From Candidatus Aminicenantia bacterium (GTDB lineage: Bacteria > Acidobacteriota > Aminicenantia > JdFR-78), in assembly GCA_046760445.1 (NCBI GenBank), contig JBHIEE010000002.1:1-62058 (forward strand): a stretch of 62,058 nt of DNA. Reading direction: 5' to 3'. A program made the position numbers and the translations under genes. A model generated the notes under the pieces. The model worked only from the letters and a program-made list of their open reading frames with translations. It ran no database searches and was not told the origin of the DNA. Of this stretch, positions 4,472 to 46,898 are shown piece after piece. How positions within the stretch are numbered: position 1 is the stretch's first letter; each line of letters starts with the position of its first letter.

Positions 4472-4477
4472 TTAAAG

Positions 4478-29640: not shown

Positions 29641-31711
29641 CATTAAAAAACTGGGAGAAGGGGGCATGGGTGCCGTGTTTCTGGCCGAACAGACTGAGCC
29701 AGTCCGACGACGCGTTGCCCTTAAGATCATTAAACTAGGGATGGATACTAAACAGGTTGTGGCCCGCTTCGAGGCAGAGCGTCAGGCCCTCGCAGTAATG
29801 GACCACCCCAACATCGCCAAGGTCTACGATGGTGGAGCCACCCAGACAGGGCGTCCATACTTTGTGATGGAGCTTGTCCGTGGAATGCCTATTATTGAGT
29901 ACTGCGACAAACATAAACTCTCCATGCGCGAGCGGCTGGAGCTGTTCATTCCGATATGCCATGCGATCCAACATGCCCACCAGAAGGGTTTGATTCACCG
30001 TGATCTTAAACCCTCCAACGTGTTGGTGACGGTTCAGGACAATAAGCCTATTCCAAAGATAATCGACTTTGGCATCGCCAAGGCAATAGATCATCGCCTA
30101 ACCCAGCAGACACTCTACACAGAGCAGGGCCAGCTCATCGGGACACCTGAGTACATGAGTCCTGAACAAGCAGAGATGTCTGGTCTAGATGTGGATACGC
30201 GGACGGACATCTACTCCCTGGGAGTCATGCTCTATGAGCTATTGGTGGGAGTGCTGCCGTTTGACCCAAAAACACTCCGATCAGCTGGATTTGGCGAGAT
30301 TCAGCGAATCATTCGTGAAACTTATCCACCAAAGGCCAGCACTCGTCTAAGCAGCCTAGGCGATACCCAAAGCGTAATTGCTGAACACAGGCGGACAGAT
30401 CCGACTTCCCTTCATAGACAGCTTAAGGGCGACCTGGACTGGATTCTCATGAAGGCTATGGAAAAGGACCGTACACGCCGCTATGAAACCGCGAATGCTA
30501 TGGCCCTGGATATCCAGCGGCATATTAGCAACGAACCCGTCTTGGCTCGCCCTCCCAGCACCATGTACCAGCTACAAAAGCTAGTAGCGCGACACAAGAC
30601 TATATTTGCTTTTGTGGGATTACTGTTTGTGTTGCTTCTGGGATTCGCCATCACTATGACAGTGCAATCGGCCCGGATTGCCACCGAGCGTGATAGAGCC
30701 GATAGAGAAGCTACGAAGGCTATGGCTATCAACACGTTCCTAATGGAGACTTTAGGTTCAGCAAACCCGATTGAGGGAAGCAGCCGTGATATCACAGTAG
30801 TGGAGGCGCTGAAGACAGCAACTGAAAAAATCGCCGAGTCCTTTGTTGAACAACCAGAGGTAGAGGCAGAAGTCCGTCATACAATCGGGATTACATATCT
30901 AAGGCTCGGCCACTACGAGGACGCTGAGAAGTTGCTAAGGTCGGCATTAGAAATTTTTCAAAACACACTTGGTCGAGATCACCCGGATATAGCAGGACCG
31001 CTAACTAGTCTTGGTATATTAAGACATGAACTGGGTGATTATAATGAGGCTGAATCGCTTTATCGCGAGGCCCTGGCAATTAAACGCAAATTGCATGGAG
31101 ACGAAAATGAGGAAGTATTGAATATCTTGAATAACTTGGCTTTGTTAATTCAGGATAAAGGCGACATTGAGGCAGCCGAGCCACTATTCCGAAAGATCTT
31201 GGAAGTTGACCGTAAGCTATTGGGAAAGGAGCACCTTAATGTGGCAATTGACCTCAACAATCTTGGCAGGCTTCTTCAGAAAAAAGGGGATTATGAGTCA
31301 AGTGAGCTGCTGCTTCGGGAGGCAGTTACCATCCTCCGGAAGAAACAGCATCCATGGTTGTCCATAGGCTTAAGCAATCTGGGTGAGTTGCTGAATAAAA
31401 AGGGCGATTATAAGGCGGCCGAGCCGATTTTCGTCGAGGCTCTATCGATTGGGTTGAAGTATCTTGGTGATAAGAATCAGGATGTGGCTAAGCTTCGAAG
31501 CAGGTACGGTGCGTGTCTGATTAAGCTGAAACGTTTTGAAAATGCGGAAGAGCAACTCCTCGCTGCTCTCCCGGTCTTGCGCGATAGCCTGGGTGAACAG
31601 AATGAAAGGACTCAGCAGACGATCAGCTATCTTATCGAACTGTACGAAGCTTGGAGTAAAGAAGATAAGGCGGCTGAGTATCGAGCTCTTCTTGCCTCGC
31701 AAAGACAATAA
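29471..31711 (+). CDS. Hanks-type Ser/Thr protein kinase with N-terminal Zn-ribbon, one TM helix and C-terminal TPR (TPR_10/12-like) repeats
   Basis: CSKCHFDN...FCGKC; GEGGMGAVFLA, VALKII, HRDLKPSN, DFGIAK, SPEQ; TM IFAFVGLLFVLLLGFAITMTV; repeated LNNLA/LG--Y-EAE-L TPR units. The gene body is much GC-richer than its first ~170 nt. Confidence 0.9.
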   Translation: MKCSKCHFDNPADTRFCGKCATPLPSPDEISVCHTKTLETPMKDLTTGITLAGKYKLIKKLGEGGMGAVFLAEQTEPVRRRVALKIIKLGMDTKQVVARFEAERQALAVMDHPNIAKVYDGGATQTGRPYFVMELVRGMPIIEYCDKHKLSMRERLELFIPICHAIQHAHQKGLIHRDLKPSNVLVTVQDNKPIPKIIDFGIAKAIDHRLTQQTLYTEQGQLIGTPEYMSPEQAEMSGLDVDTRTDIYSLGVMLYELLVGVLPFDPKTLRSAGFGEIQRIIRETYPPKASTRLSSLGDTQSVIAEHRRTDPTSLHRQLKGDLDWILMKAMEKDRTRRYETANAMALDIQRHISNEPVLARPPSTMYQLQKLVARHKTIFAFVGLLFVLLLGFAITMTVQSARIATERDRADREATKAMAINTFLMETLGSANPIEGSSRDITVVEALKTATEKIAESFVEQPEVEAEVRHTIGITYLRLGHYEDAEKLLRSALEIFQNTLGRDHPDIAGPLTSLGILRHELGDYNEAESLYREALAIKRKLHGDENEEVLNILNNLALLIQDKGDIEAAEPLFRKILEVDRKLLGKEHLNVAIDLNNLGRLLQKKGDYESSELLLREAVTILRKKQHPWLSIGLSNLGELLNKKGDYKAAEPIFVEALSIGLKYLGDKNQDVAKLRSRYGACLIKLKRFENAEEQLLAALPVLRDSLGEQNERTQQTISYLIELYEAWSKEDKAAEYRALLASQRQ

Positions 31712-32041: not shown

Positions 32042-32452
32042 ATGAAGACATTAAAAATTACAAGTGATCTTACAGAGTTAGACAAAATAAGAAGTTTTTT
32101 GAAAAAAAATCTCAAGGGATTGAATATTTCAGATAAAGATTACTATAAAATTGAGCTATCACTACTGGAAATATGTGTAAATATCATCAGATATGCCTAT
32201 CCCAAGGAGAAAGGCGAGATCTCCTTTAAGACTTGGCATCGAGAGGGAAAGATATTTTTAGAAATAAGGGATAAGGGTATTCCTTTTGATCCAAGAAAAG
32301 CGAAGAAGCCTGATATAGGGGAAATCATCAGGAATGAGAAAAAAGGTGGATTAGGAATTCTCCTTTCCTCCAAGCTTATGGATGGATTTGATTATAAGCG
32401 AGAAAATAATCAGAATATTCTGACTATGTATAAGAAAATTAAAGAGGCTTGA
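32042..32452 (+). CDS. Anti-sigma-factor-type Ser kinase (RsbW/SpoIIAB-like HATPase_c_2)
   Basis: 136 aa. ELSLLEICVNIIRYAY (N box), IRDKGIPFDP (G1), GGLGILLSSKLMD (G2). Confidence 0.8.
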   Translation: MKTLKITSDLTELDKIRSFLKKNLKGLNISDKDYYKIELSLLEICVNIIRYAYPKEKGEISFKTWHREGKIFLEIRDKGIPFDPRKAKKPDIGEIIRNEKKGGLGILLSSKLMDGFDYKRENNQNILTMYKKIKEA

Positions 32453-32461
32453 GCCTCGGAA

Positions 32462-33289
32462 TCAGTATAAGACTTTATCCTCGCCCTGCTTCTGGATAAG
32501 TTTGTCGATTTCCTTGAGTATCAGCTCCTTCCGAGTGAGGACAGCGTTAATTTCTTTATCTTTCAAATATTCCCCGACAATGTCTTTTATCAATTCAAAA
32601 TTCAAGGCCTTTATTTTCTCGACAAAAGCCCGGGGAAGCTCTCTCATAAGCTTTGGTCCTTCTTTATGTTTCTCGGTAAAGATGAGTTCTTTAGTGAATT
32701 TTTTGGAAGATCTGAAGGAACGGGAGTGGTCGATGAGGATCATACGCCAATCCTTAGTAATGAGAATATTCCCCGCATGACGGTCTTCGTTGCCAATCAA
32801 GTTATCGAAGGCTCGTTGCAAGTAGATTGCCCTATTCCAATAGAAGACTTTGTAAGAGGGAATTTTAATTTTTCTCTCATTTTTCTCCCTAAGTTTCATT
32901 TCATATTCCACCCATAATTGACAGGAGCCTCGATCTCCCTGAAATCTTCTTTCCACAGTGGGTGAGACCATATTCAGACCTAAATACTTGTCTAATCGGT
33001 AGGCAGCGATTTCCCATTTCCAGCCTTCAATATACCCTTTCATCCGGCCCTCTGGGTTCTTCCACAACGCATCTCTAGTGATGCCGTCTTTTTCCAGAGT
33101 CAGCACCCAGGGTTCAGTGACTGCCTCTCGCCCTTTCTTCTGGTAAAAACTTGTAATTTCTGCTGTTTTGAGGAATTCTTCCCATTTGGCTCTTTCTGCC
33201 AGTTCTTCTGGAGTGAACTGAGCTATGGATTGAAAATGAAAACCCAGGAAAATTATAAAGAAGAAAAAGGTAATGATTCTTTTATTCAT
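32462..33289 (-). CDS. Exported PI3K/PI4K-like (SCO1664/HipA-like fold) putative kinase, paralog A1
   Basis: Signal-like N-terminus MNKRIITFFFFIIFLGFHFQSIA|Q. EIAAYRLDKYLGLNMVSPTVERRFQGDRGSCQLWVE. GNEDRHAGNILI (DRHxxN catalytic-loop-like). ILIDHSRSF (DFG-position equivalent). Confidence 0.55.
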   Translation of the reverse strand: MNKRIITFFFFIIFLGFHFQSIAQFTPEELAERAKWEEFLKTAEITSFYQKKGREAVTEPWVLTLEKDGITRDALWKNPEGRMKGYIEGWKWEIAAYRLDKYLGLNMVSPTVERRFQGDRGSCQLWVEYEMKLREKNERKIKIPSYKVFYWNRAIYLQRAFDNLIGNEDRHAGNILITKDWRMILIDHSRSFRSSKKFTKELIFTEKHKEGPKLMRELPRAFVEKIKALNFELIKDIVGEYLKDKEINAVLTRKELILKEIDKLIQKQGEDKVLY

Positions 33290-33356
33290 CTTTTCCCCTC
33301 CTTCATAATTGAGATTTTCTGATTAATTTATCTTAAATATGGCATAAAATAAGACA

Positions 33357-34178
33357 TTAATACAAAACTTTATCTTCGCCTTTTTCTTTTATCATTTCAT
33401 CGATCTCCTCTAAAAGAAGCTGTTTGCGGATGAGAATAGCTTTTATCTCTTTGTCCTTCAAATAGGGACCCACAGCTTTTTTGATGTTATCAAAGTTCAA
33501 GGTTTTAATCTTTTCCACGAAAGCCCGAGGAAGTTTTCTGAATGGTTGAGGGCGACCTTCGGCATTCTTTCCAAAAAGGAGTTTCTCAGTGAATTTCTTA
33601 GAGGAACGGAAAGAACGGGAATGGTCGATGAGAATCATACGCCAATCCTTGGTATAGCGGATATTTTGCTGGGTTCGGTCTTCGTTGGCGATCAAACTGT
33701 CAAAAGCTCTCATTAAATACTTCATTTTGCTCCAATGGTCGGACTTAGTAGGAGGAATCTGAATTTTTTGTTCCATTCTTTCAAGATCGCTGTATTCATG
33801 CTCAACCCAAAGCTGAAGAGACCCTCTCTTCCCCCTAAATCTTCTCTCGACTGTGGGCGGAACCATATTTAACCCCAAAAGTTTATCCATCTCGTAAGCA
33901 GCGATTTCATACTGCCATCCTTCAAGGTAGCCCTTCTGGATACCGCTGGGGTTCTTCCATACACCATTTCTTTCTACATCTCCCTTTTTTAAGTAGACCT
34001 CAATCGGCTTTGTAACACCTTCCCTTATATCTTTGTATTTTACTATCTCTGCAGTTTTGAGGAATTTTTCTATTTCTTCCCTTTGGGCAATCTCAGCAGG
34101 AGTGAACTGTCCGTTGGCCTTATAGCTTTGAGCTATGAGAAGAAATAGAGTGATAATAAGAAAAATTTTTCGTTTCAT
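33357..34178 (-). CDS. Exported PI3K/PI4K-like putative kinase, paralog A2
   Basis: ORF 33357..34208. Start moved to ATG 34178 behind AAGGAG, giving MKRKIFLIITLFLLIAQSYKA|NGQ. Same blocks as A1 (EIAAYEMDKLLGLNMVPPTVERRFRGKRGSLQLWVE, ANEDRTQQNI, ILIDHSRSF). Confidence 0.55.
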   Translation of the reverse strand: MKRKIFLIITLFLLIAQSYKANGQFTPAEIAQREEIEKFLKTAEIVKYKDIREGVTKPIEVYLKKGDVERNGVWKNPSGIQKGYLEGWQYEIAAYEMDKLLGLNMVPPTVERRFRGKRGSLQLWVEHEYSDLERMEQKIQIPPTKSDHWSKMKYLMRAFDSLIANEDRTQQNIRYTKDWRMILIDHSRSFRSSKKFTEKLLFGKNAEGRPQPFRKLPRAFVEKIKTLNFDNIKKAVGPYLKDKEIKAILIRKQLLLEEIDEMIKEKGEDKVLY

Positions 34179-34260
34179 TTTTTTCTCCTTATTCGAAGCT
34201 TTCCCCAAAATATTTTGATAATAATATAACTCTATTTTTTTAGAAAATCAAATCAAAACA

Positions 34261-34289
34261 TTGACATGAATTTTTTTAATGTTATAAAT
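34261..34289 (+). promoter_or_regulatory. sigma70-type promoter upstream of the beta-propeller lipoprotein gene
   Basis: TTGACA (34261-34266), 16-17 nt, TATAAA/ATAAAT (34283-34289). Confidence 0.4.
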
Positions 34290-34395
34290 TTTCTTTTCGA
34301 GGTAAAGAAAAAGTGATTGCCTTAAAAATAAATAAATGATATTTGGCTTTTTTTAAATCTCTTGCTAATATAATTTATTTAAAGGAGAATAGAGA

Positions 34396-35214
34396 ATGAA
34401 AATAAGGTTTTTCTTGTTGAGTGCCTTAATCCTATTAGCCAATTGTTTGCCGGCAAAATATTCCCCAACAATTCGATTTCCTTATACATGGCTTGGAAAC
34501 ATTGACCAGCAAAATTTTGTCGAGCCTTCTGGTATTTGTTTTCATCCCCTTAGGAAAACTCTTTTTGTAGTGAGTGATGAGGGAAAGATTGTTGAGATGG
34601 AGACTGATGGAACGCCTGTTTTTAATTTAAAGATTCCTGGAGATTTGGAAGGAGTAACAGTTAACCCTCAATCAGGGCTTCTATACCTAATAATAGAGGG
34701 AGAGGACATCATCCTTGAGTTTGACCCTGATAAGAAAGAAGTCACCCGAAAATTTCCCGTTAATAGAGAATTCCAAGGCGATCCCAACTTTCTCCAAAAG
34801 CAGGAGAAGGACTATGATAACGGCATTGAATCCATTGCTTTTATCTCGAATGAAAATCATCCTGAAGGAGGAACTTTCTATGTGGGTAATCAAGACGATC
34901 CTCCTTGTATAATGGAAATTCTGGTTCCTCTAAAATCAAGCCAAGCTGAGACTGCGGAAGCTCGGATTACCAGGGTTTTACCCTTCAAAATGGATGACCC
35001 TGCAGCTATGTATTATGATTCTAAAGCAGGACTCTTAAATGTTGTCAGCGATGCAGATAACATCTTGGTGGAGATAACCCTGGAAGGAAAATTAGCCAAA
35101 GAATATGCTTTTCTTGGGGACAATCAGGAAGGACTTGCCAGGGATGAGGAAGGCTATTTGTACATTGCCCAAGATTCAGGGGGAATAATTAAGGTAAAAG
35201 ACCTGAGAAAATAA
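34396..35214 (+). CDS. SdiA-regulated (YjiK-like) beta-propeller lipoprotein
   Basis: Lipobox LLANC. Repeated EPSGI / DLEGV / GIESIA / NQEGLARD blades typical of the SdiA-regulated domain family. Confidence 0.6.
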   Translation: MKIRFFLLSALILLANCLPAKYSPTIRFPYTWLGNIDQQNFVEPSGICFHPLRKTLFVVSDEGKIVEMETDGTPVFNLKIPGDLEGVTVNPQSGLLYLIIEGEDIILEFDPDKKEVTRKFPVNREFQGDPNFLQKQEKDYDNGIESIAFISNENHPEGGTFYVGNQDDPPCIMEILVPLKSSQAETAEARITRVLPFKMDDPAAMYYDSKAGLLNVVSDADNILVEITLEGKLAKEYAFLGDNQEGLARDEEGYLYIAQDSGGIIKVKDLRK

Positions 35215-35223
35215 AAAAACAAA

Positions 35224-35387
35224 GCTCAAAATCCAAATGTCAAATGAATGATATTGAGATTTATTGAAACTCATTGAGATTCTTTGAGATTTGTTAAGAT
35301 TTTTAATCTTCCTCCTTCCTAGTCTCCCAATCTCCTATTCTCATAGTCTCAGATTTTTCATTTGATATTTGAGTTTTGTCATTTGAA
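35224..35387. repeat. Imperfect inverted repeat of doubled words, overlapping the 3' end of the TLC gene
   Basis: ctcaaaatccaaatgtcaaatgaa (left) versus ttcatttgatatttgagttttgtcatttgaa (right). Inner words attgagatt / tctcccaatctcc. Confidence 0.5.
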
Positions 35388-36800
35388 ATTTTCATTGGAT
35401 ATTTTTCTTTTAGCTGATAATTCTTTGTGCTCTCGCATAATAAAAATGCAAAGGATTATCCAAATCACTACAATTGCAACATTGAATTGAGCAACTCTTG
35501 CTATATTTTCTATATTGAAAGCGAGATAAGTTGTACCCAGGAAAACGAGCAAAGCTGATAGTACATCACCTGCGCGCCAAAAAAAAGTGTCTATGGCTGC
35601 TTTGGCTTTATATTTGGCCTCTCTTGAAGTTATGAGGAAAAGGGCATGTCGGGTTGCATTCATAATAGAGTAATCAGTACTATTTTCAAAGGTTTTAACC
35701 CATCTTACTATTATCAAGGTTGCTCCAAAAGCAATAAAGAAATATCCCCCAAGGGCAACTAAGGGGAGGATGAACAGGGCTCCTCTAACTCCAAACCACT
35801 TAAAAATTCGAGACATCAGAAAGAGCTGAATAACCGCGGCAATAAGATTAACAATAAAATAGAAATCTGCATAGAGTTTGCCGATAAGTTCTGGCTTATC
35901 TAAACCTCCTGTTTCACCAATCAGGATGGCTTTGTCGGCATTGTGGATGATTACCTTCCCTAATATGTATTCGCCATTGGTGTTGACGAAATTAAGCAAT
36001 AAAATAAGAAAAGCTATGTAAAGAAGGTATCGACTTTTAAAAACAAAACGAAACCCTCCTCCCTTTTTAAGGGGCTTCTCCTGAACTTTTTTTCTTGATT
36101 CATTCTCAGGACTGACTTTTGCTGCTTTATCCTCAGTTCTTTTTATCTCTCTTTTATGAATAATAAGGGTTAATAAAATGCAAATTCCCAGTATTCCTCC
36201 TGCAACCAGCATCAATTGATAGAGACCCAAGGACCCCACAAGCCAATTATGGATATTAGGCCCCCATAAAGCTCCAAAGTTTGCTCCGAACATAACTATA
36301 GGGAACAAACGTTTCCCTGCTTCATGGGTGTATAGATCGTTAGCAAAGCCCCAGAATTGAGCAATAACCATCAAGTTAAATATACCTATCCAAACAAAAA
36401 AGATTATTCCCATTGTTCCTAACGGAATTCCAATTAAATTTAAAACATAAAAGAGGACTAAGTTGGAAATGAAAAAGAGCGTTACCCAAGTGATTAATAT
36501 TTGCCGGGGGACTTTAGAAGCAATATCACTGAATATTTTAATCACAGGAATAAACAAGATTGCGATAGCGCCACTAAGATAACTTCTAAGTTCAGCTCCC
36601 TTTCCAGCTAAAATTAAGGCTTCCCTTATTGGCTTTAAAATGTAATAAGCGGTAAGAAGGAGAAAAATGTTGAAAGTTAAGAGAAAAGCAGTAGGAGCTT
36701 CACCGGGGTAGACCACTGTAAAAATTCTAAGAATTCTATGAGCAAATCCAGGCGATTTTTCATAAGTTCTCTTCATCCCTTCATTGTTGTAAGCTTTCAT
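35379..36800 (-). CDS. TLC family (ATP/ADP translocase-like, Npt1/Npt2-type) membrane carrier
   Basis: 473 aa, about 11-12 TM. LLLTAYYILKPIREAL and AQFWGFANDLYTHEAGKRLFPIVMFGANFG match the TLC signature (FW-FAN-----EAKR-YP-FG-GAN-G). Confidence 0.7.
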   Translation of the reverse strand: MKAYNNEGMKRTYEKSPGFAHRILRIFTVVYPGEAPTAFLLTFNIFLLLTAYYILKPIREALILAGKGAELRSYLSGAIAILFIPVIKIFSDIASKVPRQILITWVTLFFISNLVLFYVLNLIGIPLGTMGIIFFVWIGIFNLMVIAQFWGFANDLYTHEAGKRLFPIVMFGANFGALWGPNIHNWLVGSLGLYQLMLVAGGILGICILLTLIIHKREIKRTEDKAAKVSPENESRKKVQEKPLKKGGGFRFVFKSRYLLYIAFLILLLNFVNTNGEYILGKVIIHNADKAILIGETGGLDKPELIGKLYADFYFIVNLIAAVIQLFLMSRIFKWFGVRGALFILPLVALGGYFFIAFGATLIIVRWVKTFENSTDYSIMNATRHALFLITSREAKYKAKAAIDTFFWRAGDVLSALLVFLGTTYLAFNIENIARVAQFNVAIVVIWIILCIFIMREHKELSAKRKISNENFK

Positions 36801-36931
36801 TGAATCCCCCTTTCATACTTTCCCCAATGGATTTTTCATGAAAATTATTCTTGAATTAAATAAAACACCCTTTCCTATAAAAAGTCAAAATAAATTCTGC
36901 TATTTTTAAATATTATTGACCGAGAAAATTT

Positions 36932-37735
36932 TTAGGAGAAGAGGACGGATTCTTCTCCTTTTTCTTCTATTAATTGTTGAATCTTCTCTATGATAATATT
37001 TTTTCGTTCCAGTAATGCTTCAATTTCCTCGTCATTTAGATAGGGCTTTAGCTTGGCTCTAACGATTTTGCTGTCCAATTTCAGAAAGTTTTGATAAAGC
37101 TTCTTCGAACAACGGGTGATTTCGCAACCAGGGATTAATTCTGAGAATGGTGAAAAGGCCCCAGAAAAGTCAACCCTCCATACTTTCCAATCCTCCTTAT
37201 GGATTAAAATATCATCCGTGTCTATGCGCTCGTTGTAAGTTAAATTCTCAAAAATATTTATATCTTCCAGGGTGTTTTCAAAACCCTTAGGGTCAGGTGG
37301 TTCAATATTTCTTCTTTTTCGGTCATTTTCTGTTATGCAGCCTCCGATGAATAGCTGAAGGGATCCTTTTATGCCCTTTATTTCTCTTTCCACAACAGGG
37401 GGAACTCTATTTAAATCAAGGAGTTTATCCAGCTCATAAGCAGCAATTTCATATTTATAACTATCAGGGAGAAACGATGGTCTACGACGATTGATATACT
37501 TGAAGTATCCTCGCCGTGCTATTTTCCCATCATCCAGCTTTATTACCCAAGCTGCCATTCTTCCTCCCCGTGGGTCTATTTCAACAGAAACAATCTTAGC
37601 GGTTCTTAAGTAATTCTCCAGGTCTTTTTGCTTCAAATCTTTTTGATTGGCCATTTGGGATTTACAATTACACCAATTGCCAAAAATGAAGCAGATAAAA
37701 AACATGATGGTCAAAGCTCTCTTATTTTTCATCAT
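36932..37735 (-). CDS. Exported divergent PI3K/PI4K-like paralog A3 (catalytic motifs altered)
   Basis: ORF 36932..37762. Probable start MMKNKRALTIMFF... at 37735/37732, overlapping the stop of the upstream phosphatase gene. EIAAYELDKLLDLNRVPPVVEREIKGIKGSLQLFI is conserved, but NERIDTDDIL replaces NEDRHAGNIL and VDFSGAF replaces IDHSRSF. Confidence 0.5.
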   Translation of the reverse strand: MMKNKRALTIMFFICFIFGNWCNCKSQMANQKDLKQKDLENYLRTAKIVSVEIDPRGGRMAAWVIKLDDGKIARRGYFKYINRRRPSFLPDSYKYEIAAYELDKLLDLNRVPPVVEREIKGIKGSLQLFIGGCITENDRKRRNIEPPDPKGFENTLEDINIFENLTYNERIDTDDILIHKEDWKVWRVDFSGAFSPFSELIPGCEITRCSKKLYQNFLKLDSKIVRAKLKPYLNDEEIEALLERKNIIIEKIQQLIEEKGEESVLFS

Positions 37736-38822
37736 TAACCCCCCATACCGAGAATTTTCCATTCTCTATAATCAAAGCGCTTAGATTACCACCATAGGCA
37801 TCTGAAATGCCAGTATCAATTATCCAAATCCTTCCTTGAAACCGTCTCATATCCTTCATTGAAACACCTTTGCCCCTTTTTGGTGTATGAGCTATTACCA
37901 TATATTTGGCGTCGAGGTTGGATAAGATTCTACCAATTTCTTTTTTTAAAACATCTTCATCCTTCTGAGCTAACTCCCGATACCAGAGGGGTCCATTGCT
38001 GTCAAAAACAATTTCAGGTTTAAAAGGAATTTTAGGCGGCTGAGAGCGCCTTCCTGCTCTGCGCAGGAAATTTAGTTCCTTGCGCAAGAGATTATTTATA
38101 TCCTCCAGCTTCCATTTAGAAAATTCTTCGCTTATTCCTCCATGGGCAAATACAATATCATTGATTTTAATTACGGCATTGTGTTTAAGAATCCATATTC
38201 CATATTTTTCATTAAAGGTGTTTATATACTTTCTTCGAGCTCCCCCGTCGTTTCTCATTATTTCTCTCCAAAACTCCTCTAAATTGATATTTAAAGAAAT
38301 ATCCGGATCCGTCTCTTTGAGGGCTTTCTGTCCTATTCTTTCTCTAAATTCTTTTTCTCTCTTCTCTCTATATTTATCAGGAAGAAAGGAAACAAATTGG
38401 TCTACAGTAACATAGCCAACATAGTCGAAGGCTATGCCTGTAATATTCATTTCCTCATGGTTACCGATCAACACATGAACTTTGCCCCCTGCCTCTTCAG
38501 CTTCTTTCTCCAATCTTATCAATAGGTCAAAAACTTTCTTTGCATCAGGTCCTCTATCCATGATATCGCCGGTTTGTACTAGATGAGTTTTCCCTCCTGT
38601 CCAATGAAGTTCCTCATTGATTAATTTTATTCCTTTTAAGATTTTTACAAAATTCTTATAATCGCCGTGTATATCTCCTATAGCGACAATTTTTTCAATG
38701 CCGGTCCATACACACTGTATGCTGGCGGCATAGAGATTGGTAAGAAAGGTGAAGATAAAGAAAGTGAAAATTAATTGAGTTTTAATTTTTCTCATTGGGT
38801 TTTTAATGGAGTTGTTCTTCAT
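37722..38822 (-). CDS. Exported PPP-family (calcineurin-like) metallophosphoesterase / Ser-Thr phosphatase-like protein
   Basis: Hydrophobic N-terminus QLIFTFFIFTFLTNLYA|AS. GDIHGD, GDIMDRG, GNHE, FAHGG and VIAHTP motifs. Confidence 0.75.
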   Translation of the reverse strand: MKNNSIKNPMRKIKTQLIFTFFIFTFLTNLYAASIQCVWTGIEKIVAIGDIHGDYKNFVKILKGIKLINEELHWTGGKTHLVQTGDIMDRGPDAKKVFDLLIRLEKEAEEAGGKVHVLIGNHEEMNITGIAFDYVGYVTVDQFVSFLPDKYREKREKEFRERIGQKALKETDPDISLNINLEEFWREIMRNDGGARRKYINTFNEKYGIWILKHNAVIKINDIVFAHGGISEEFSKWKLEDINNLLRKELNFLRRAGRRSQPPKIPFKPEIVFDSNGPLWYRELAQKDEDVLKKEIGRILSNLDAKYMVIAHTPKRGKGVSMKDMRRFQGRIWIIDTGISDAYGGNLSALIIENGKFSVWGVNDEK

Positions 38823-38943
38823 AGTCTTTTCCTATGTTTCCAAGCAATATCTTTTTATTCTTTCCTTCGACTTTAATACTGTTCACTAATATTTATAATA
38901 GAGTAATGATAAGGGATGTCAAGAATTAAAGACATAACTTATC

Positions 38944-38972
38944 TTGACAAGATGAGTTTTCTAATATATATT
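38944..38972 (+). promoter_or_regulatory. sigma70-type promoter of the STAS/TLC-HEAT/PP2C operon
   Basis: TTGACA (38944-38949), 17 nt, TATATT (38967-38972). About 270-nt leader before 39244. Confidence 0.5.
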
Positions 38973-39243
38973 TTTGAAGGAAAATACAGAAAATACGCAA
39001 ATCATGAGTTTTTTCGAAATTACAGTCTATCTCTCTTTTTTCAAAAATAAACTTATGCACTGGCTCTTAAATAAGATTTTTGAAGAAGAAAGATAAGCAG
39101 GATTTAGATCGAAAAAGACGGAAAAAAAAGAAAATTCCAGGTAATCGAAGAATCGGAAAAGGAGGAGAGGGGGATTATCCTATTGATTCAAACAAAACCA
39201 GAGAAGTAGCCAATAGTAAGATTCTAAAAGAGTAAGGGAAGAA

Positions 39244-39591
39244 ATGGTAATAAATACAAGAGAAAAAAACGATATCGTTATTTTTGACATTGAGGGAGAA
39301 ATCAAAAGATCGGAGATAACCGATGTAACTCTACACCAGATCGTTAAAGATCAATTAGATACCGGCAAAAGGAATATACTCTTAAATTTTGAGAAAGTTG
39401 AACTTATTGATAGCTTTGGAGTAGGAGAGATTTTAGCCAGCTACATTTCCACTCACAATTTAGGGGGAAAGCTGAAGCTCGCAAAAATATCAAAAAAACT
39501 TTACCTTGTCTTTCAAGTCACAATGCTTACTAATGTTTTTGAAATATTCGATGATGAGGAAGTGGCATTAAAAAGCTTTTTTAAAGAATAG
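39244..39591 (+). CDS. STAS domain anti-sigma-factor antagonist (RsbV/SpoIIAA-like)
   Basis: 115 aa. ...VELIDSFGVGEILASY contains the phosphorylatable Ser position (DS-G). Confidence 0.8.
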   Translation: MVINTREKNDIVIFDIEGEIKRSEITDVTLHQIVKDQLDTGKRNILLNFEKVELIDSFGVGEILASYISTHNLGGKLKLAKISKKLYLVFQVTMLTNVFEIFDDEEVALKSFFKE

Positions 39592-39624
39592 TCCACGGTA
39601 CTATCCTTCTTAAAGAGTCATTCT

Positions 39625-42111
39625 ATGGTGAAAAATCGCTTTTATAAAATTTTGTCGCGGATTGTAGAGATCAAACCAGGCGAGGAAATCATATCTATCT
39701 TCCTCTTTTCTTATTTTTTTTTAATCACCGCTCCGTACAACATTATTAAATCCCTTAGGAATGCGAGTTATTTAGACACGCTGGGAGCAAAAGGGCTTCC
39801 CCTTGCTTATTTATTGACAGCCGCTCTAATAGGCTTTGTTGTTGCTTTTCATTCCAAGCTTCAAGTCAAAATTCCAAGACATCTTTTAATAATATCCAGC
39901 CTCATTTTTTTCATTCTCACTTGTTTCCTTTTCTGGTTGCTTTTCCCCTATGGGTGGAGTTGGTTGCCACTCGCTTATTGGATATGGGCGAATATTTTTA
40001 TTGTAGTTCTAGTGACTCAATTCTGGGTTTCAGTTAACGATGCATTCAACCCGAGGGAGGCAAAAAGACTGATTGGCTTCTTTGGCAGTGGAGGAATATT
40101 AGGAGGTATAGTAGGAGGAGAGGTGACAGGTTTTTTAGCTAAGTCTAAGGTATCTTACGATCTTCTACTTGTAGCTTCTGGAATGCTCATCGCCTGTGTT
40201 TTTGTCGTAAATTATATATTTATTTGGCAGGCAAAAAGACAATCTATCACTGATAAAGCAGATAAAAAAGATAAAGAAAGAGGGGGAGAACTGCCTAAAG
40301 TAGGCTTTAAAGATTGCTTCGATACTGTAAGAAAACACTATTATTTAAAGCTCCTGGCAGCAGTAGTCACAACAACATTGATTGTTTCGACTCTTATTGA
40401 TTTTCAGTTTAATAGTGTAGTCGAAAGCACGCTGTCTGTAAGGAATAATCTGACAGCTTTTTTTGGACATTTTAATGCAGGATTGATGGTTCTTCCTTTT
40501 TTTCTTCAACTTTTGATGACGAGCAGCCTTATCAAACGCTATGGCATTCGTTTTACCTTATTGCTTTACCCCATGGTATTGCTCCTTTGTTCTTCGGGAA
40601 TTGCCGCTTTCCCGATTATTTATTTTGCTATACTCATTAAAGGCAGCGATAAAAGCCTCTCTTATTCCCTTAACCAGTCTGTCCGGGAGCTCCTTTATAT
40701 TCCTATTTCACCAGAGCTTAAGTACAAAGCAAAGATATTCATCGATATGTTTCTCAATAGATTTGCCAAAGGCATCGGAGCAGTGATACTTATGATACTT
40801 TTATACTTTCATCTTGGAATCCAATATGTGAGCCTTGCTTCTGCTGTTTTTATTTTTGTGTGGGTTATTCTCAATCTAAAGGTAAGTAAGGAATACATCA
40901 ATACTGTTAAGCAGAAATTAGAGGTGAAGTGGGAGCGGGCGGATAGATTAGTGGCTGAAAAAGTGGATGTTGATTATACAAAATTAGTCTTTGACACCTT
41001 AGAGAGCAAAAATCGAAGTTCAGTCTTGTATGCCATGCATCTCTTCGATTTGATAAAGCAAGATAAACTCACTCCTGAACTAAAAAAGATAATCTCATAT
41101 AAATCTGATGAAATAAGAGCGAGTTCCATGGATTCGCTTCTAGAATTGGATGGAGAGGTTTTAATCCCTGAAATTGATGATGCTTTGGACGATGAAAGCC
41201 TTGATGTCCAGGTTAAGGAAATCATGTCTTTGGATGTTTACCAAGAACTGATGAAAGAGCACATCAATAAAATCGTAAGTGAGGAAAGCAAGGAGGCAGA
41301 GGTTTCCAGAATGGAAGCAGCTAAGGTTCTGGGAATGATGGAGCCAACTTCCCCCCTCATCCATAACCTTAGTAAACTCCTTAGGGATGAATCGCCCGAA
41401 GTGATTAGGTACGCTGTTGAGAGTGCCGGAAAGCTAAAAAGGAGGGAGTTCGTTCCTCTTATCATTCAGCAATTGAGTAAGCCCTCCACCCAGGAAGTCG
41501 CCAGTAAAGCTTTAGTAGAATATGGAGTTAAAATTATAGGGACACTAAAAGATTATTTGGGGGATCCGGAAGAAGATATTCGATTGCGAAAGGCCATCCC
41601 AGACATCTTAGCCCGAATAGGCACCCAAAGAGTAGGAGATTTATTAGCTTTAGAATTAAAAAAGGAAATAAGGGATGTGGAATCTGAAATCATCGAAGCT
41701 ATGTATAAGATGAAATCGAAAAATCCTCAAATTCATTTTCAGGAAAAGATAGTATTGTCTGAAATAATTCTGAAAATAAAAGAAAGTTATTTGATTTTGA
41801 TGGAAATGCATGATTTAAAAGCAGATAAGAAAAAAGCGTTTTCGGCTACAGACTTAGAGAATAATTTAGCTCAACCTCTCAAACATATTTTTGAACTGTT
41901 AAGTCTTATTTATCCCCAAGAAGATGTCATTAAAGCCTATCAAAATATTTGTACTGGAACAAAAAAGGCAATAGACTATTCTATCGAACTTCTTGACAAT
42001 ATGTTAAAGAAAGAGATAAAAGAGGTTCTCCTTCCCTTGATTGATGATATTCCTTTTAAAGATAAGGTTAGGAAATGCAGAAAATTGCTTAAGACTTTGG
42101 AAAAAGTTTAA
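39625..42111 (+). CDS. TLC-like membrane carrier fused to a C-terminal HEAT/armadillo-repeat domain
   Basis: N-terminal ~440 aa with multiple TM segments and TQFWVSVNDAFNPREAKRLIGFFGSGG (TLC signature). C-terminal ~380 aa helical repeats (LLRDESPEVIRYAVESAGKLK, LGDPEEDIRLRKAIPDILARIG). Confidence 0.7.
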   Translation: MVKNRFYKILSRIVEIKPGEEIISIFLFSYFFLITAPYNIIKSLRNASYLDTLGAKGLPLAYLLTAALIGFVVAFHSKLQVKIPRHLLIISSLIFFILTCFLFWLLFPYGWSWLPLAYWIWANIFIVVLVTQFWVSVNDAFNPREAKRLIGFFGSGGILGGIVGGEVTGFLAKSKVSYDLLLVASGMLIACVFVVNYIFIWQAKRQSITDKADKKDKERGGELPKVGFKDCFDTVRKHYYLKLLAAVVTTTLIVSTLIDFQFNSVVESTLSVRNNLTAFFGHFNAGLMVLPFFLQLLMTSSLIKRYGIRFTLLLYPMVLLLCSSGIAAFPIIYFAILIKGSDKSLSYSLNQSVRELLYIPISPELKYKAKIFIDMFLNRFAKGIGAVILMILLYFHLGIQYVSLASAVFIFVWVILNLKVSKEYINTVKQKLEVKWERADRLVAEKVDVDYTKLVFDTLESKNRSSVLYAMHLFDLIKQDKLTPELKKIISYKSDEIRASSMDSLLELDGEVLIPEIDDALDDESLDVQVKEIMSLDVYQELMKEHINKIVSEESKEAEVSRMEAAKVLGMMEPTSPLIHNLSKLLRDESPEVIRYAVESAGKLKRREFVPLIIQQLSKPSTQEVASKALVEYGVKIIGTLKDYLGDPEEDIRLRKAIPDILARIGTQRVGDLLALELKKEIRDVESEIIEAMYKMKSKNPQIHFQEKIVLSEIILKIKESYLILMEMHDLKADKKKAFSATDLENNLAQPLKHIFELLSLIYPQEDVIKAYQNICTGTKKAIDYSIELLDNMLKKEIKEVLLPLIDDIPFKDKVRKCRKLLKTLEKV

Positions 42112-42163
42112 AAAATATCCTTGAAATATAGTTCTCTTTCGATTAAAATTAAAAAAAATATAA

Positions 42164-43840
42164 ATGTCGAAACTATTTGTTTATCCGAAAAAGGGGGAGG
42201 TATTTTGTTTTCCTCTCAAAAAAGAAAAAATATCTATCGGGCGTTCCGCTGACAATGACATCTCCACTCCTGATCCATTTTGTTCAGGGCATCATGCCTT
42301 CATTTATCCTTCGGAAGTGGGATATGTGGTTCGAGATAATAACAGCAAAAATGGAACCTTTGTTAATGGCAAAAAAATTCAATCCGAGACCGAACTCAAG
42401 AAAGGAGATGAAATCCTTATTGGCTCAACAAGGATTGTCTTTGATAAGGAACTTTCGACAAATATTGAAGTTGTGGAGATTCCATCCCCCTCTGCAAATG
42501 TAAATACCATAATTCATCTTAAAGAGATTCTGAAGAAGCCCGATATCGAGACAACTTTGAAAGCTAATGCAACACCTTTTGATTTGGAAAGGATCAAATC
42601 AGAACATAAAGCTTTTTCCGTGTTAAGTGAAGTCAGTAAAACTCTTATTTCCCATAGGCCCCCAGAAGAACTCTTAGACCATATCATGGATTTAATTTGC
42701 CAGAATCTCCCTATGGACAGAGGGATTCTGATGCTAAAAGAAGGAAATCCTGCTCAATTAATTCCAAAAGTTGTTCGTATCAATAACAAGAACCTTAAGA
42801 ATCAGAAAATTCAGGTGAGTCAAAGCATAATCAATATGGCTGTTAATAAGCATTCGTCAGTCCTCACTTATGATGCCCAAGCTGATCCTCGTTTCAGGAC
42901 TAAGGAGAGCGTTATTAAATCCAACATCCATTCGGCAATGTGTGTTCCTTTATGGAATAACAAGGAAATTATAGGAATAGTCTATTCAGACCGGATATAT
43001 CTCCTTGACCGGTTTTCGGATGAAGATCTAAAACTGTTGACTCTCTTATCCAATTTGGCTGCGATCAAGATCGAAAATGCTAAGCTTATCGAGCAAGCCA
43101 TCGAGAAAGAAAAGATTGAAAAAGAGCTTGCGTTGGCTGCCCAGATTCAAAAAGACTTTCTTCCTAAAGAAGATCCTGAGTGCGAAAATTTTAAAATCGC
43201 TGGCTCCAACATCTCTTGTTATCATGTTGGTGGGGATTATTATGATTTTATCACTATCGATCCTTGTCGCTTAGGGATTATTATTGCTGATGTTTCTGGG
43301 AAAGGAATTAGTGCTTCCCTTCTCATGGCTTCTTTAAGAGCAGCTCTTCATTCAGAGGTTCATCCTCAATACAAGTTAGAGGAAATGGCGGCTAAATTGA
43401 GCAATTTCGTTCACCGCAGTTCTGCCCAAAATCGTTTTATAAGTTTTTTCTTTTGCGAATTAAACAATAAAAGTGGCGAGCTAAGATATATCAATGCTGG
43501 ACATAATCCTCCCCTTATCCTCGATAGAAAAGGGAAAATTCATCGTTTGAAAAGCTGCGGCTTGTGCTTGGGTATGTTTCCTTCTGTTACTTATGAAGCG
43601 AAAAAAGTCACTTTAAAAGCCGGTGATATGGCCCTTCTTTTTACAGATGGAATCACCGAAAGTCGGAATAAAGAAAAAGAAGAATTTAATGAGAAAAGAC
43701 TCATAAACCTCCTTAAAAAGCATTCTAAATTACCTGCCCAGAAACTTCTGGAAAAAATTTTTGATGAAATCAATTTATTCACCTCTGGTGCTGACCAAAT
43801 GGACGATATGACTCTCGTCATCATTAAAAGAATCTCTTAG
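42164..43840 (+). CDS. FHA-GAF-PP2C (SpoIIE/RsbU-type) phosphatase
   Basis: FHA (ISIGRSADNDI...NSKNGTFVNGKKI), GAF (DRGILML...), SpoIIE-type PP2C (GGDYYDF, IADVSGKG, NAGHNPP, FTDGITE, DDMTLV). Confidence 0.85.
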   Translation: MSKLFVYPKKGEVFCFPLKKEKISIGRSADNDISTPDPFCSGHHAFIYPSEVGYVVRDNNSKNGTFVNGKKIQSETELKKGDEILIGSTRIVFDKELSTNIEVVEIPSPSANVNTIIHLKEILKKPDIETTLKANATPFDLERIKSEHKAFSVLSEVSKTLISHRPPEELLDHIMDLICQNLPMDRGILMLKEGNPAQLIPKVVRINNKNLKNQKIQVSQSIINMAVNKHSSVLTYDAQADPRFRTKESVIKSNIHSAMCVPLWNNKEIIGIVYSDRIYLLDRFSDEDLKLLTLLSNLAAIKIENAKLIEQAIEKEKIEKELALAAQIQKDFLPKEDPECENFKIAGSNISCYHVGGDYYDFITIDPCRLGIIIADVSGKGISASLLMASLRAALHSEVHPQYKLEEMAAKLSNFVHRSSAQNRFISFFFCELNNKSGELRYINAGHNPPLILDRKGKIHRLKSCGLCLGMFPSVTYEAKKVTLKAGDMALLFTDGITESRNKEKEEFNEKRLINLLKKHSKLPAQKLLEKIFDEINLFTSGADQMDDMTLVIIKRIS

Positions 43841-44041: not shown

Positions 44042-44295
44042 AGCATTTTTTTAGTTATTAAATTTGACTATTTTCTTATTAAATAATATTATATTGTCAA
44101 ACAAGCAAAAGGAACAATGAATTATGAAATGCCCTAAATGTCATTTTGAAAATCCCGCTGATACCCGTTTTTGCAACAACTGTGCAACACCACTTCAACC
44201 CTCAGAGGAAATCTCTATTTCTCAGACGAAGACTCTCCAAATACCCATGAAAGAGATAACCATTGGAAGCACTTTTGCTGGAAGGTACCAAGTCA
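43957..44295 (+). repeat. Repeat R2 (second copy of the promoter + Zn-ribbon module)
   Basis: See R1. Offset between copies is 14,654 bp, same orientation. Confidence 0.85.
44064..44092 (+). promoter_or_regulatory. sigma70-type promoter of kinase gene 2
   Basis: TTGACT (44064-44069), 17 nt, TATTAT (44087-44092). Confidence 0.5.
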
Positions 44296-46898
44296 TTGAA
44301 GAGCTTGGGAGAGGGGGCATGGGCGTGGTCTACAAAGCCAAGGACAATAAACTTAAACGCACCGTCGCATTGAAATTTCTCACACCCAAAGCCTTGGGAA
44401 GTGAGGAGGAAAAAACGCGTTTTGTGCATGAGGCGCAAGCTGCCGCAGCATTGGATCATCCTAACATTTGTACAGTCTACGAAATTGATGAAGCTGAAGA
44501 GCCTGCCCCGGTGGGCAGGCAAACCTTCATTGCGATGGCTTATATCAAAGGTCAAAGTCTAAAAGAGAAGATCGAATCAGGCCCCCTGAAACTGGATGAA
44601 GCGCTGGACATTGCCATACAGGTTGCAGAGGGCTTGCAGGAGGCACATGAGAAAAGGATCGTTCACCGAGACATCAAAAGTACCAACATTATGGTAACAG
44701 AGAAAGGTCAGGCAAAGATAATGGATTTTGGGTTAGCCAAGTTAGCTGAGGGAACGAAGCTTACCAAGGCGGCAACGATCATGGGTACGGTGGCATACAT
44801 GTCGCCGGAGCAGGTGAGGGGGGAAACGGTCGATCACCGCACGGACATCTGGTCGCTGGGTGTTGTGTTGCATGAGATGGTCACCGGGCAATTGCCCTTC
44901 AAAGGGGAGTATGAGCAGGCGGTGATGTATTCGATTTTGAATGAAGGTTCAGAGCCGTTGACAAGCGTGCGAAGTGGCATACCATTGGAGTTTGAAAGAA
45001 TCGTAAACAAGTGCTTGGAGAAGGACCCAACCGAGCGCTACCAGACTACCGCCGACTTGAAAGCAGACCTGAAGCGTTTGAAGCGCGACATAAGTTCAGG
45101 AAAGGCTGCTGTCCACATCGCAACGGCTGCCGTACCGCATCCTTTCCAGCGGCTTCTGCGTAAGACTGCTGTCCCCCTTACCGGGGTGATTATAGCAATG
45201 CTATTGTTATTGCTGCTGTCCTCAAACCGAAGAGCTGTAAAGAAGTGGTTGGGTTTTGAGGCGATACCTGCTGAGAAGCATCTTGCAGTGCTCCCCTTCA
45301 CCATTGTAGGCGGTGACTCAGAAGACCAGGCTTTTTGTGACGGCCTGGTGGAAACTTTTACCAGTAAGCTCACCCAACTGGAGCGCTTCCAAGGGTCGCT
45401 ATGGGTCGTGCCCGCGAGTGAGGTACGTGAACGGGGAATTACCAGCGTTAGCGAAGCCAGGAGGGCTTTTGGGGTCAATCTGGTTGTAACCGAAAGTATG
45501 CAACGCATAGATGACATGCTTCAGTTGACGTTGAACCTCGTTGATACGAAGACTCTGCGCCAACTGAGATCCGAAGTTATCAAAGGTGGTATTAACAATC
45601 TTTCTGATATGCATAACAATGCCGTCATCAAACTGGTCGGGATCCTAGACATAGAATTACAACCACAAACGAGTAGGGTATTAACCACTGGAGGCCCCAC
45701 TGTACCGGACGTTTCCGAATTATATGTGAAAGCCCGCGGTTACATGCAACGCTACGAGAAGGAGGAAAATCTCGACACTGCAATTAGCTTGTTTAAGCGA
45801 GCGATTGATAAAGATTCTTCTTATGCCTTGGCCTATGCAGGATTGGGGGAAGCCTATTGGCGCAAGTACAAACTTACGAAAGACCCCAACTGGGTTAAAA
45901 TAGCTCAATCATATTGTAACCGTGCAATTCAGCTCAGTGAAAGTTTGGCGCCAGTCCATGTCACGCTCGGAATCATTTATAGAGATACTGGTCGATATGA
46001 GGACGCCATTAAAGAATTTCAGCAGGCATTATTGCTTGATCCTGTAAACTCTGATGCTCACCGAGAATTAGCTTCGGCCTATGAGAAGCTCGGAAAACTA
46101 GAAAAAGCAGAAGCGACATATAAAAAAGCTATTGAATTGAGGCCAAGTTATTGGGCGGGTTACAGCTATCTAGGCGTTTTTTATTACTTCCAAGGCCGCT
46201 ACACTGAGGCAGAAAAAATGTTCCTCAAGGTTACGGAATTAACGCCGGACAATATTCGTGGTTATAATCTTTTGGGGGCTGTCTACCTTCAAATGGGTCG
46301 AATTGATTTGGCAACGGCAATGTTAAAAAAATCCCTCGCCATCAAACCTGATGCGGTCACCTACTCCAATTTGGGTACTTTATACTTTTATCAACGCAGG
46401 TATGCCGACGCCACGGCTATGTATGAAGAGGCGATCAAGTTGGGAGAGAATAGATATACGATTTGGGGGAATCTGGCTGATACTTACCGATACATGCCTG
46501 GATATTCGGAAAAGGAACGGGAAGCTTATCAACGCGCCATTCAATTAGCTGAGAAAGAACTGGAAATTAATCCTAAAGATGCCCACCTTCATGGAAATTT
46601 AGCCTTCTATTACGCAATATTAGGAAACCATAAAAATGCACTGACTAAAATCTCCAAGGCTCGAAAATTGGCGCCAAATGATGTATGGGTTCTCCGCAAA
46701 TGCGTCCAGGTCTTTGAACTCGCCAATCAACGCGACCAAGCACTTCAAGCTCTCGAAGAATTTATTAAACGAGGCGGCTCCATAGACGAAGTTCATAAAG
46801 ACCCTGATCTTTCTGAACTCCGTAAAGATCCTCTTTACCAACAATTGGTCATGAAAGAAGAATCCACTGTATTTGATTCTCCCGATATAAACAAATGA
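44124..46898 (+). CDS. Hanks-type Ser/Thr protein kinase with N-terminal Zn-ribbon, TM helix, extracytoplasmic domain and TPR repeats
   Basis: CPKCHFEN...FCNNC; GRGGMGVVYKA, VALKFL, HRDIKSTN, DFGLAK, SPEQ; TM VPLTGVIIAMLLLLLLS; then a ~130-aa domain and multiple TPRs (AYAGLGEAYW, AHRELASAYEKLG...). Confidence 0.9.
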   Translation: MKCPKCHFENPADTRFCNNCATPLQPSEEISISQTKTLQIPMKEITIGSTFAGRYQVIEELGRGGMGVVYKAKDNKLKRTVALKFLTPKALGSEEEKTRFVHEAQAAAALDHPNICTVYEIDEAEEPAPVGRQTFIAMAYIKGQSLKEKIESGPLKLDEALDIAIQVAEGLQEAHEKRIVHRDIKSTNIMVTEKGQAKIMDFGLAKLAEGTKLTKAATIMGTVAYMSPEQVRGETVDHRTDIWSLGVVLHEMVTGQLPFKGEYEQAVMYSILNEGSEPLTSVRSGIPLEFERIVNKCLEKDPTERYQTTADLKADLKRLKRDISSGKAAVHIATAAVPHPFQRLLRKTAVPLTGVIIAMLLLLLLSSNRRAVKKWLGFEAIPAEKHLAVLPFTIVGGDSEDQAFCDGLVETFTSKLTQLERFQGSLWVVPASEVRERGITSVSEARRAFGVNLVVTESMQRIDDMLQLTLNLVDTKTLRQLRSEVIKGGINNLSDMHNNAVIKLVGILDIELQPQTSRVLTTGGPTVPDVSELYVKARGYMQRYEKEENLDTAISLFKRAIDKDSSYALAYAGLGEAYWRKYKLTKDPNWVKIAQSYCNRAIQLSESLAPVHVTLGIIYRDTGRYEDAIKEFQQALLLDPVNSDAHRELASAYEKLGKLEKAEATYKKAIELRPSYWAGYSYLGVFYYFQGRYTEAEKMFLKVTELTPDNIRGYNLLGAVYLQMGRIDLATAMLKKSLAIKPDAVTYSNLGTLYFYQRRYADATAMYEEAIKLGENRYTIWGNLADTYRYMPGYSEKEREAYQRAIQLAEKELEINPKDAHLHGNLAFYYAILGNHKNALTKISKARKLAPNDVWVLRKCVQVFELANQRDQALQALEEFIKRGGSIDEVHKDPDLSELRKDPLYQQLVMKEESTVFDSPDINK

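Follow-up and report, generated by a model that had tools for sequence, protein, structure and literature searches.

A conserved cluster joining a partner-switch operon with an embedded NTT-HEAT carrier to an operon of predicted exported kinases in Aminicenantes

Introduction

The DNA analysed here, referred to below as the window, is a stretch of 62,058 nucleotides (nt) with a GC content of ∼0.35 from Candidatus Aminicenantia bacterium (Acidobacteriota; GenBank assembly GCA_046760445.1, contig JBHIEE010000002.1, positions 1 to 62,058 of the forward strand). On its + strand lies a group of three genes, here called the STAS operon, encoding a STAS-domain-only protein of the anti-sigma-antagonist type (39244-39591; 115 residues), an NTT-HEAT fusion carrier (39625-42111; 828 residues) and an FHA-GAF-PP2C serine phosphatase of the SpoIIE/RsbU type (42164-43840; 558 residues). 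An RsbW-type serine kinase with a HATPase_c_2 domain (32042-32452; 136 residues) is encoded 7 kb farther upstream on the same strand. An original prediction, made from the sequence alone, had read these genes as a partner-switching module without a sigma factor whose output might be the HEAT domain of the carrier, and had passed over the genes at 32462-38822.

The open reading frames (ORFs) named in that prediction were all found at their coordinates and each of their domains was confirmed by Pfam; the gaps of 33 and 52 nt within the STAS operon and the upstream RsbW-like gene (ORF and Pfam) likewise stood. The genes that had been passed over are a conserved operon and part of the same cluster, and they change its likely biology: in Aminicenantes, the STAS operon adjoins a second operon of predicted exported enzymes. 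The original interpretation as a whole is partly supported.

Methods

The proteins of the window were compared by tblastn with 51 genome loci from distinct Aminicenantes species, and 80 further metagenome loci centred on the kinase-like gene K1 (described below) were also compared. Neighbouring genes were inspected within ±10 kb of each related locus. Sigma-factor domains were sought in non-overlapping ORFs of at least 100 residues and in the two partial ORFs at the ends of the window.

Results and discussion

The STAS gene lies directly upstream of the carrier gene, at a gap of 30-50 nt, in 40 of the 42 genome loci with enough flanking sequence, and the FHA-GAF-PP2C gene is the immediate downstream neighbour of the carrier gene in 41 of 42 testable loci; the few exceptions most likely stem from artefacts of contig ends or of the alignment. 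The same order is seen across carrier identities of 34-80%, and tandem duplication of the carrier gene does not disturb it. It is conserved across more than 100 related loci, in line with the unit originally proposed. The tandem duplication of the NTT-HEAT gene (gap 10-30 nt) is seen in most of loci L001-L033; a single copy is present in the window and in its closest relative (L052).

Among the deeper-branching loci, all 17 with enough downstream sequence have the RsbW-like gene 26-61 nt behind the phosphatase gene, and the order STAS, carrier, PP2C phosphatase, kinase is continued by the convergent genes K1, K2, T2, K3 and the exported phosphatase. The clade of the window has the block from the kinase to the exported phosphatase upstream of STAS, which is a circular permutation of the same set. 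The same ten-gene set occurs in two circular permutations among the 80 K1-centred metagenome loci; of about 44 informative loci in this sample, 36 have the RsbW-like gene and K1 arranged convergently, 3-30 nt apart.

The exported-enzyme operon of the window contains three paralogues of ∼275 residues, all encoded on the - strand. K1 (32462-33289) and K2 (33357-34208) are predicted exported kinases resembling PI3/4K and FAM20. The former has a signal peptide, MNKRIITFFFFIIFLGFHFQSIA/QF, together with the motifs GNEDRHAGN (DRHxxN) and the DFG-like IDHSRSF; the latter, a member of the K-family (A1) profile, conserves NEDRTQQN, LIDHSRSF and a signal peptide, and its true start is probably the ATG near 34178. 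K3 (36932-37762) conserves its signal peptide and the motif RVDFSEAF, and the absence of the catalytic DRHxxN motif makes it pseudokinase-like. The operon also encodes an exported PPP-family (Shelph-type) phosphoprotein phosphatase (37722-38822, - strand; Pfam Metallophos, 8e-15), which matches the cold-active protein-tyrosine phosphatase of Shewanella (PDB codes 2z72 and 1v73; 1e-33) and whose orthologues keep the motifs GDIHGD, GDIMDRG and GNHE and an N-terminal signal peptide. This phosphatase and K3 form one ORF of ∼620 residues with a single N-terminal signal peptide in at least six relatives (L036, L037, L038, L040, L045 at 4140-5996 and L046; at ∼18-20 kb in the distant loci). Because the signal peptides are conserved and the fusions carry only one, K1, K2, K3 and the phosphatase are most likely exported.

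Two further proteins are encoded among these genes. T2 (35379-36800, - strand; Pfam TLC, 7e-12, and MFS_1) is a second NTT/TLC-like carrier that lacks HEAT repeats; it has ∼12 hydrophobic segments and the motifs EAGKR and REAKYKAKAAID, and is conserved within the exported-enzyme operon of the relatives. A β-propeller lipoprotein resembling SdiA-regulated proteins (34396-35214, + strand; Pfam SdiA-regulated, 1.5e-13) appears to be accessory, with a lipobox in its orthologues and a presence in part of the clade.

The K-family profile matches FAM20A (4e-7), Fam20B (1.5e-5) and Fam20C (4e-5), and K1-K3 carry signal peptides; as with the FAM20A pseudokinase, one paralogue (K3) is without the catalytic motif. 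A search with Foldseek using an AlphaFold2 (AF2) model of K1 [predicted local distance difference test (pLDDT) 72] returned protein-kinase-like folds only, led by PI3K, PI4K and Vps34 and including HopBF1, with E values of 1e-4 and template-modelling scores (TM-scores) of ∼0.3 to PI3K/PI4K. The similarity to the FAM20, PI3K and PI4K kinases is nevertheless distant, given these TM-scores and a Pfam PI3_PI4_kinase score of 25.2 bits, under the cutoff of 27.1. The exported phosphatase is homologous to the solved Shewanella protein-tyrosine phosphatase and thereby allied to the Shelphs. Searches with K1 and a metagenome scan with the K family recovered only close Aminicenantes orthologues (65-80% identity).

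The three components expected of a partner switch are supported by their domain matches and have their key residues intact. The STAS protein scores 40.8 bits with Pfam STAS (2e-10; cutoff 22.6) and 50.4 bits with NCBIfam TIGR00377, slightly below the cutoff of 53.45, and its closest solved relatives are SpoIIAA (6e-9) and RsbV. Its putative phospho-acceptor is Ser57 in the loop ELIDSFG, and the pair D56-S57 is invariant across 25 orthologues. The phosphatase matches SpoIIE (1e-52, 179 bits), FHA (1e-20) and GAF (2e-14); 29 orthologues keep both the motifs GGDYYD, DVSGKG, NAGH, TDG and DD, which include the PP2C metal-binding residues, and the FHA residues for phospho-threonine binding (GR..S.H..NG). 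The RsbW-like kinase scores 94.2 bits with HATPase_c_2 (8e-27; cutoff 27.4), is related to the solved RsbW 6m36 (1e-5) and keeps its N-box, G1 and G2 motifs in 13 orthologues; its scores with RsbW equivalog models are far under the cutoff (38.8 versus 145).

The module thus shares with RsbV/RsbW/RsbU and SpoIIAA/SpoIIAB/SpoIIE of Bacillus a STAS-only protein with a phospho-acceptor serine, a small HATPase_c_2 kinase and a PP2C/SpoIIE phosphatase with N-terminal sensory domains. It differs from them in having a membrane carrier gene between antagonist and phosphatase, in its order (V-carrier-U-W instead of the U-V-W-sigma of the Bacillus module), in the use of FHA and GAF as the input domains of the phosphatase, and in having no adjacent sigma-factor gene. 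The absence of such a gene from the window was part of the original prediction, and no sigma-factor domain was found in the scanned ORFs or in the two end partials. Nor is a sigma gene among the families conserved within ±10 kb of the more than 100 related loci, or present around the STAS operon in one complete genome. A σ54 activator of the NtrC type (receiver, AAA+ and Fis-type helix-turn-helix domains) is encoded at 19468-20856 on the - strand; it is not a sigma factor and is not linked to the cluster in the relatives.

These genes might nonetheless work as a classical anti-sigma system on a sigma factor encoded at another place in the genome, with the carrier merely residing in the operon and perhaps belonging to the regulon. 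The STAS protein has its greatest similarity to SpoIIAA/RsbV and the kinase to RsbW, the chlamydial Rsb proteins have no adjacent sigma gene and yet have been linked to σ66 (reviewed in PMC8256260), and an inspection limited to ±10 kb leaves room for such a distant location. We consider this explanation rather doubtful, because the carrier gene stays between STAS and the phosphatase over deep divergence and even after tandem duplication, because the surroundings of more than 100 loci contain no conserved sigma gene, and because the classical V-W-sigma order is never seen, the RsbW-like kinase being followed instead by the convergent exported kinase K1. Control by STAS phosphorylation of something other than a linked sigma factor appears to be a feature that the module has in common with SypE/SypA of Vibrio fischeri, BtrU/V/W of Bordetella, RbaV/W of Rhodobacter and the cyanobacterial HmpU/V/W. 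In switches with non-sigma outputs, the role of effector may fall to the STAS protein in its unphosphorylated form, and the targets are either unidentified or lie in secretion, biofilm and motility functions (PMC8256260). In the literature that we searched, no nucleotide-carrier gene is reported to be embedded in a non-sigma partner-switch operon.

The carrier (Pfam TLC, MFS_1 and HEAT_2) consists of a 12-helix TLC/MFS domain (residues ∼20-430), a conserved linker (435-529) and a cytoplasmic HEAT solenoid (∼530-828). The membrane domain has ∼12 hydrophobic segments, scores 69.1 bits with Pfam TLC (cutoff 21) and conserves the TLC motifs FW..N..EAKR..G.FG and RE.LYIP...KYKAK.FID; HEAT_2 (PF13646) matches at 40 bits (4.8e-10). 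The sequence matches the solved ATP/ADP translocators of Chlamydia pneumoniae and Arabidopsis (PDB codes 9j3n, 5e-15, and 9j3j, 9e-10). With an AF2 model of overall pLDDT 77, the top five Foldseek hits were AtNTT1 and C. pneumoniae NTT1, at target-normalised TM-scores of 0.52-0.72 for all five and 0.70-0.72 for the top three. A helical solenoid is modelled at 530-828 with a pLDDT of 86-93. Conservation is 0.55 in the HEAT half versus 0.50 in the membrane half and is highest in the linker, at 450-510. In the wider linker (435-529), S465 is invariant, yet the pLDDT is 30-46. A stretch that is conserved and modelled with very low confidence would fit a docking segment that depends on a partner.

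At 57-80% identity, the homologues of the carrier all come from metagenome-assembled Aminicenantes genomes (Acidobacteriota). A chlamydial origin of the window, to which the low GC content, the TLC carrier and an Rsb module lacking a sigma factor had pointed, was rejected on these grounds. A wider search of 1.84 billion representatives gave ∼11,800 relatives, the nearest of which outside the clade are NTT-HEAT proteins (∼925 residues) and NTT-HEAT-cNMP-binding fusions (1050-1235 residues) that align over their full length at 27-35% identity. The NTT-HEAT family has been described as monophyletic, widespread and uncharacterized (Major, Embley & Williams, 2017; PMC5381601). The window carrier shares with these NTT-HEAT and NTT-HEAT-cNBD proteins the architecture of a TLC/NTT membrane domain with HEAT repeats at the C-terminus, the lack of a characterized function and the pairing with a small regulator gene. 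It is shorter (∼830 versus 920-1230 residues), it is linked to an exported kinase/phosphatase operon, and its partners are an upstream STAS protein and a kinase/phosphatase pair instead of a downstream or fused cNMP-binding protein.

A search seeded with a distant NTT-HEAT protein reached other lineages. In sister loci from Zixibacteria, Aminicenantes and others, a stand-alone cNMP-binding gene of 137-159 residues lies directly downstream of the carrier (4 of 4), so that a small signalling protein beside an NTT-HEAT carrier is a trait of the family; the same cNMP-binding partner pattern has been reported before (PMC5381601). None of these four loci has a STAS gene nearby. The window, in turn, contains no cNMP_binding domain detectable with Pfam and has the FHA-GAF-PP2C gene downstream of the carrier instead. 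In its clade the small partner of the carrier is, as judged from the STAS domain and its invariant serine, a phosphorylatable STAS protein. The fused or adjacent cNMP regulators of the sister carriers agree with a cytoplasmic domain that receives regulation. In one sister locus (L053:1929-5359), two paralogous lipoproteins of 560 and 579 residues, with neither Pfam nor PDB matches, precede the carrier in the same operon; the locus also has an Omp85 gene upstream, with cNMP-binding and FadL-like genes on the downstream side.

The same arrangement could also be read in the opposite sense. The carrier might be a sensor whose substrate occupancy or conformation is read through its HEAT domain by the STAS protein or the kinase. 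The target of the switch would then lie elsewhere, for instance in gene expression, the exported enzymes or the second carrier. The conserved adjacency would fit such a sensor equally well, transporter-like sensors are known in other systems, and FHA and GAF already give the switch two further sensory domains, which could mean that it integrates many inputs. We nevertheless judge a sensor role unlikely, since the cNMP domain fused at the C-terminus of the sister carriers is the usual layout of a regulated transporter and not that of a sensor, and since the TLC motifs that a working carrier would be expected to have are conserved in the membrane domain.

We favour, with a probability only a little better than even (∼0.55), a reading in which the partner switch gates the NTT-HEAT carrier post-translationally instead of controlling a sigma factor. 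When ATP is plentiful, the RsbW-like kinase would phosphorylate Ser57 of the STAS protein. The PP2C domain would remove this phosphate when the FHA domain binds a phospho-threonine protein, for which the neighbouring receptor-type Hanks kinases are candidates, and/or when the GAF domain binds its ligand. One form of the STAS protein, or the kinase that it releases, would then dock on the linker or HEAT domain of the carrier and open or close nucleotide exchange. A STAS fold on the cytoplasmic face of a transporter that modulates its activity has precedents in the C-terminal STAS domain of SLC26/SulP transporters and in MlaB of the ABC transporter MlaFEDB. These STAS domains are, in contrast to the protein described here, fused to or stable subunits of unrelated transporter families, and no RsbW/PP2C pair is known to switch them.

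Several observations weigh against the gating of the carrier. The support for it comes throughout from gene neighbourhood and sequence features. The carrier scores only 71.7 bits with the NTP/NDP-exchanger model TIGR00769 (cutoff 387.2), which places it in a distant TLC branch; an ATP/ADP substrate therefore cannot be assumed and is only proposed here. The RsbW-like gene is not found within 10 kb on either side in the closest relative (L052) or in L014 and L027, all three of which retain the STAS serine, so that the kinase step may be served from elsewhere or be dispensable. In the complete genome CP070825.1 (L007), the phosphatase ORF (12543-13871, 442 residues) stops after FHA-GAF and has no PP2C domain, which may reflect decay or an assembly problem, and the STAS operon has no exported-enzyme operon within 7-10 kb. 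The export of K1, K2, K3 and the phosphatase was called from signal peptides by inspection and from hydropathy. Finally, the extra pairs of K1-like genes in L061, L076, L080 and L127 have no NTT-like gene nearby. These pairs lie among several Hanks-type kinase genes, which hints at a separate link between the two kinase families.

The genes might also be co-expressed without any interaction of their products, being needed in the same circumstances, such as the scavenging of nucleotides in sediment, while the switch regulates an unrelated process. NTT-family carriers of free-living bacteria have no known function (PMC5381601), which leaves room for such a role, as does the variety of signalling genes near the sister carriers, which includes histidine kinases, response regulators and, in one locus, a response-regulator-PP2C protein. 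We regard this as very unlikely: two rearrangements of the surrounding cluster have left both the tight gaps (30-50 nt) and the gene order in place, and the exported kinases would have no role under nucleotide import.

A role for these kinases is offered by an extension of the gating reading that we put forward as a tentative possibility only, namely that the cluster serves ATP-dependent phosphorylation outside the cytoplasm. The free-living diderm cell would run ATP-out/ADP-in exchange, with T2 and the NTT-HEAT carrier working in the reverse of the parasite mode, and the exported ATP would feed the PI3/4K- and FAM20-like kinases, opposed by the exported Shelph phosphatase. The STAS/RsbW-like/PP2C switch would throttle this export in response to cellular ATP, the GAF ligand and phospho-threonine signals, the last of these coming from receptor-type Hanks kinases that read the periplasm. 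The presence of a carrier gene inside the exported-enzyme operon would be explained if the carriers export ATP for the exported kinases. The bacterial periplasm is generally held to lack ATP, which makes the linked carriers notable.

Two Hanks-type Ser/Thr kinases, each with an N-terminal zinc ribbon and an extracytoplasmic TPR region (Pfam), are encoded on the + strand on either side of the cluster, at 29471-31711 (transmembrane helix 378-396) and 44124-46898 (transmembrane helix 348-366), and are 39% identical over 350 residues. Their genes have a GC content of 0.47-0.49 versus 0.33-0.41 for the cluster genes between them. The original prediction held that they flank the module and might signal to it through the FHA domain. 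The first is kept at the same position in the closest relative, and a counterpart of the second lies beside the phosphatase gene in L052, L004 and L045; the kinases flank the cluster in the closest relative, adjoin it in several others and are absent within 10 kb in deeper-branching relatives. A link of these kinases to the switch through FHA is plausible but only partly conserved.

The + strand promoter claimed for the STAS operon at 38944-38972 is of the σ70 type (TTGACA-17-TATATT, 11/12) and scores highest of the + strand sites in the region. Consensus sites are no commoner there than in shuffled sequence (24 found versus 22.6 ± 3.7 expected), and the assignment therefore rests on position and conservation, the closest relative having TTGACA-17-TATACT at the equivalent position. 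Upstream of STAS, a TTGACT-17(TGn)-TAAAAG block with an extended -10 element is conserved in at least 14 further relatives. This region includes a block of ∼35 nt, ATTGACTTTnAATnnTTCTTTTGATAAAAGCT, whose conservation reaches well past the needs of a promoter and which may also hold an operator; it occurs in L002, L014, L019, L020, L021, L023, L059, L067-L069, L082, L119, L120 and L133. The window and its closest relative have a different -35/-10 pair, located farther upstream than this block. A σ54 promoter was rejected, since reading of the sequence upstream of STAS showed no GG-N10-GC element; a σ70-type element is conserved there instead.

No terminator-like site was found in the STAS-carrier and carrier-phosphatase gaps. 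A 10/12 promoter-like site at 42121-42149, in the gap before the phosphatase gene, makes a second transcription start possible there. A divergent site at 38895-38922 on the - strand (TTGACA-16-TATTAT, 11/12), a consensus match only, could serve the exported-phosphatase operon. The leader between the STAS promoter-like site and the STAS start (38980-39243, ∼265 nt) holds a 30-codon ORF of doubtful meaning; a riboswitch there was rejected, as Rfam gave no match even at E ≤ 1.

In 13-15 close relatives the gene immediately upstream of STAS encodes a PilZ protein (c-di-GMP receptor family), of which there is no trace in the window. It is represented by a protein of 118 residues at L008:225-581, with equivalents in L004, L009, L010, L045, L084, L092, L095, L097, L101, L115, L117 and L132, which form a subclade in this respect. 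Elsewhere in the window, a TetR-OEP-HlyD-AcrB efflux operon lies at 2240-8769, and similar operons lie upstream of the cluster in distant relatives (L034:1014-4166 and L037:2094-4488), which suggests longer-range synteny. An anti-phage defence system was rejected, since PADLOC returned no match for any of ten cluster proteins.

Conclusions

NTT-HEAT fusions and non-sigma partner switches are each already known; in the literature that we searched, we found nothing that links NTT-HEAT carriers with partner switches or describes this cluster, and the arrangement appears to be undescribed there. Many free-living bacteria, as well as chlamydiae and oomycetes, have NTT-HEAT carriers, to which no function has been assigned since their description in 2017; ATP export, if true, would give this widespread family its first. 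Non-sigma partner switches are mostly without an identified target, and the cytoplasmic domain of the carrier is a concrete and conserved candidate for one. If the exported kinases depend on these carriers, the textbook view of a periplasm without ATP-driven phosphorylation would be challenged, and the presence of transporters of the energy-parasite type in free-living cells would be explained. For the Aminicenantes of sediments, the cluster suggests regulated nucleotide transport and possibly a supply of ATP outside the inner membrane.

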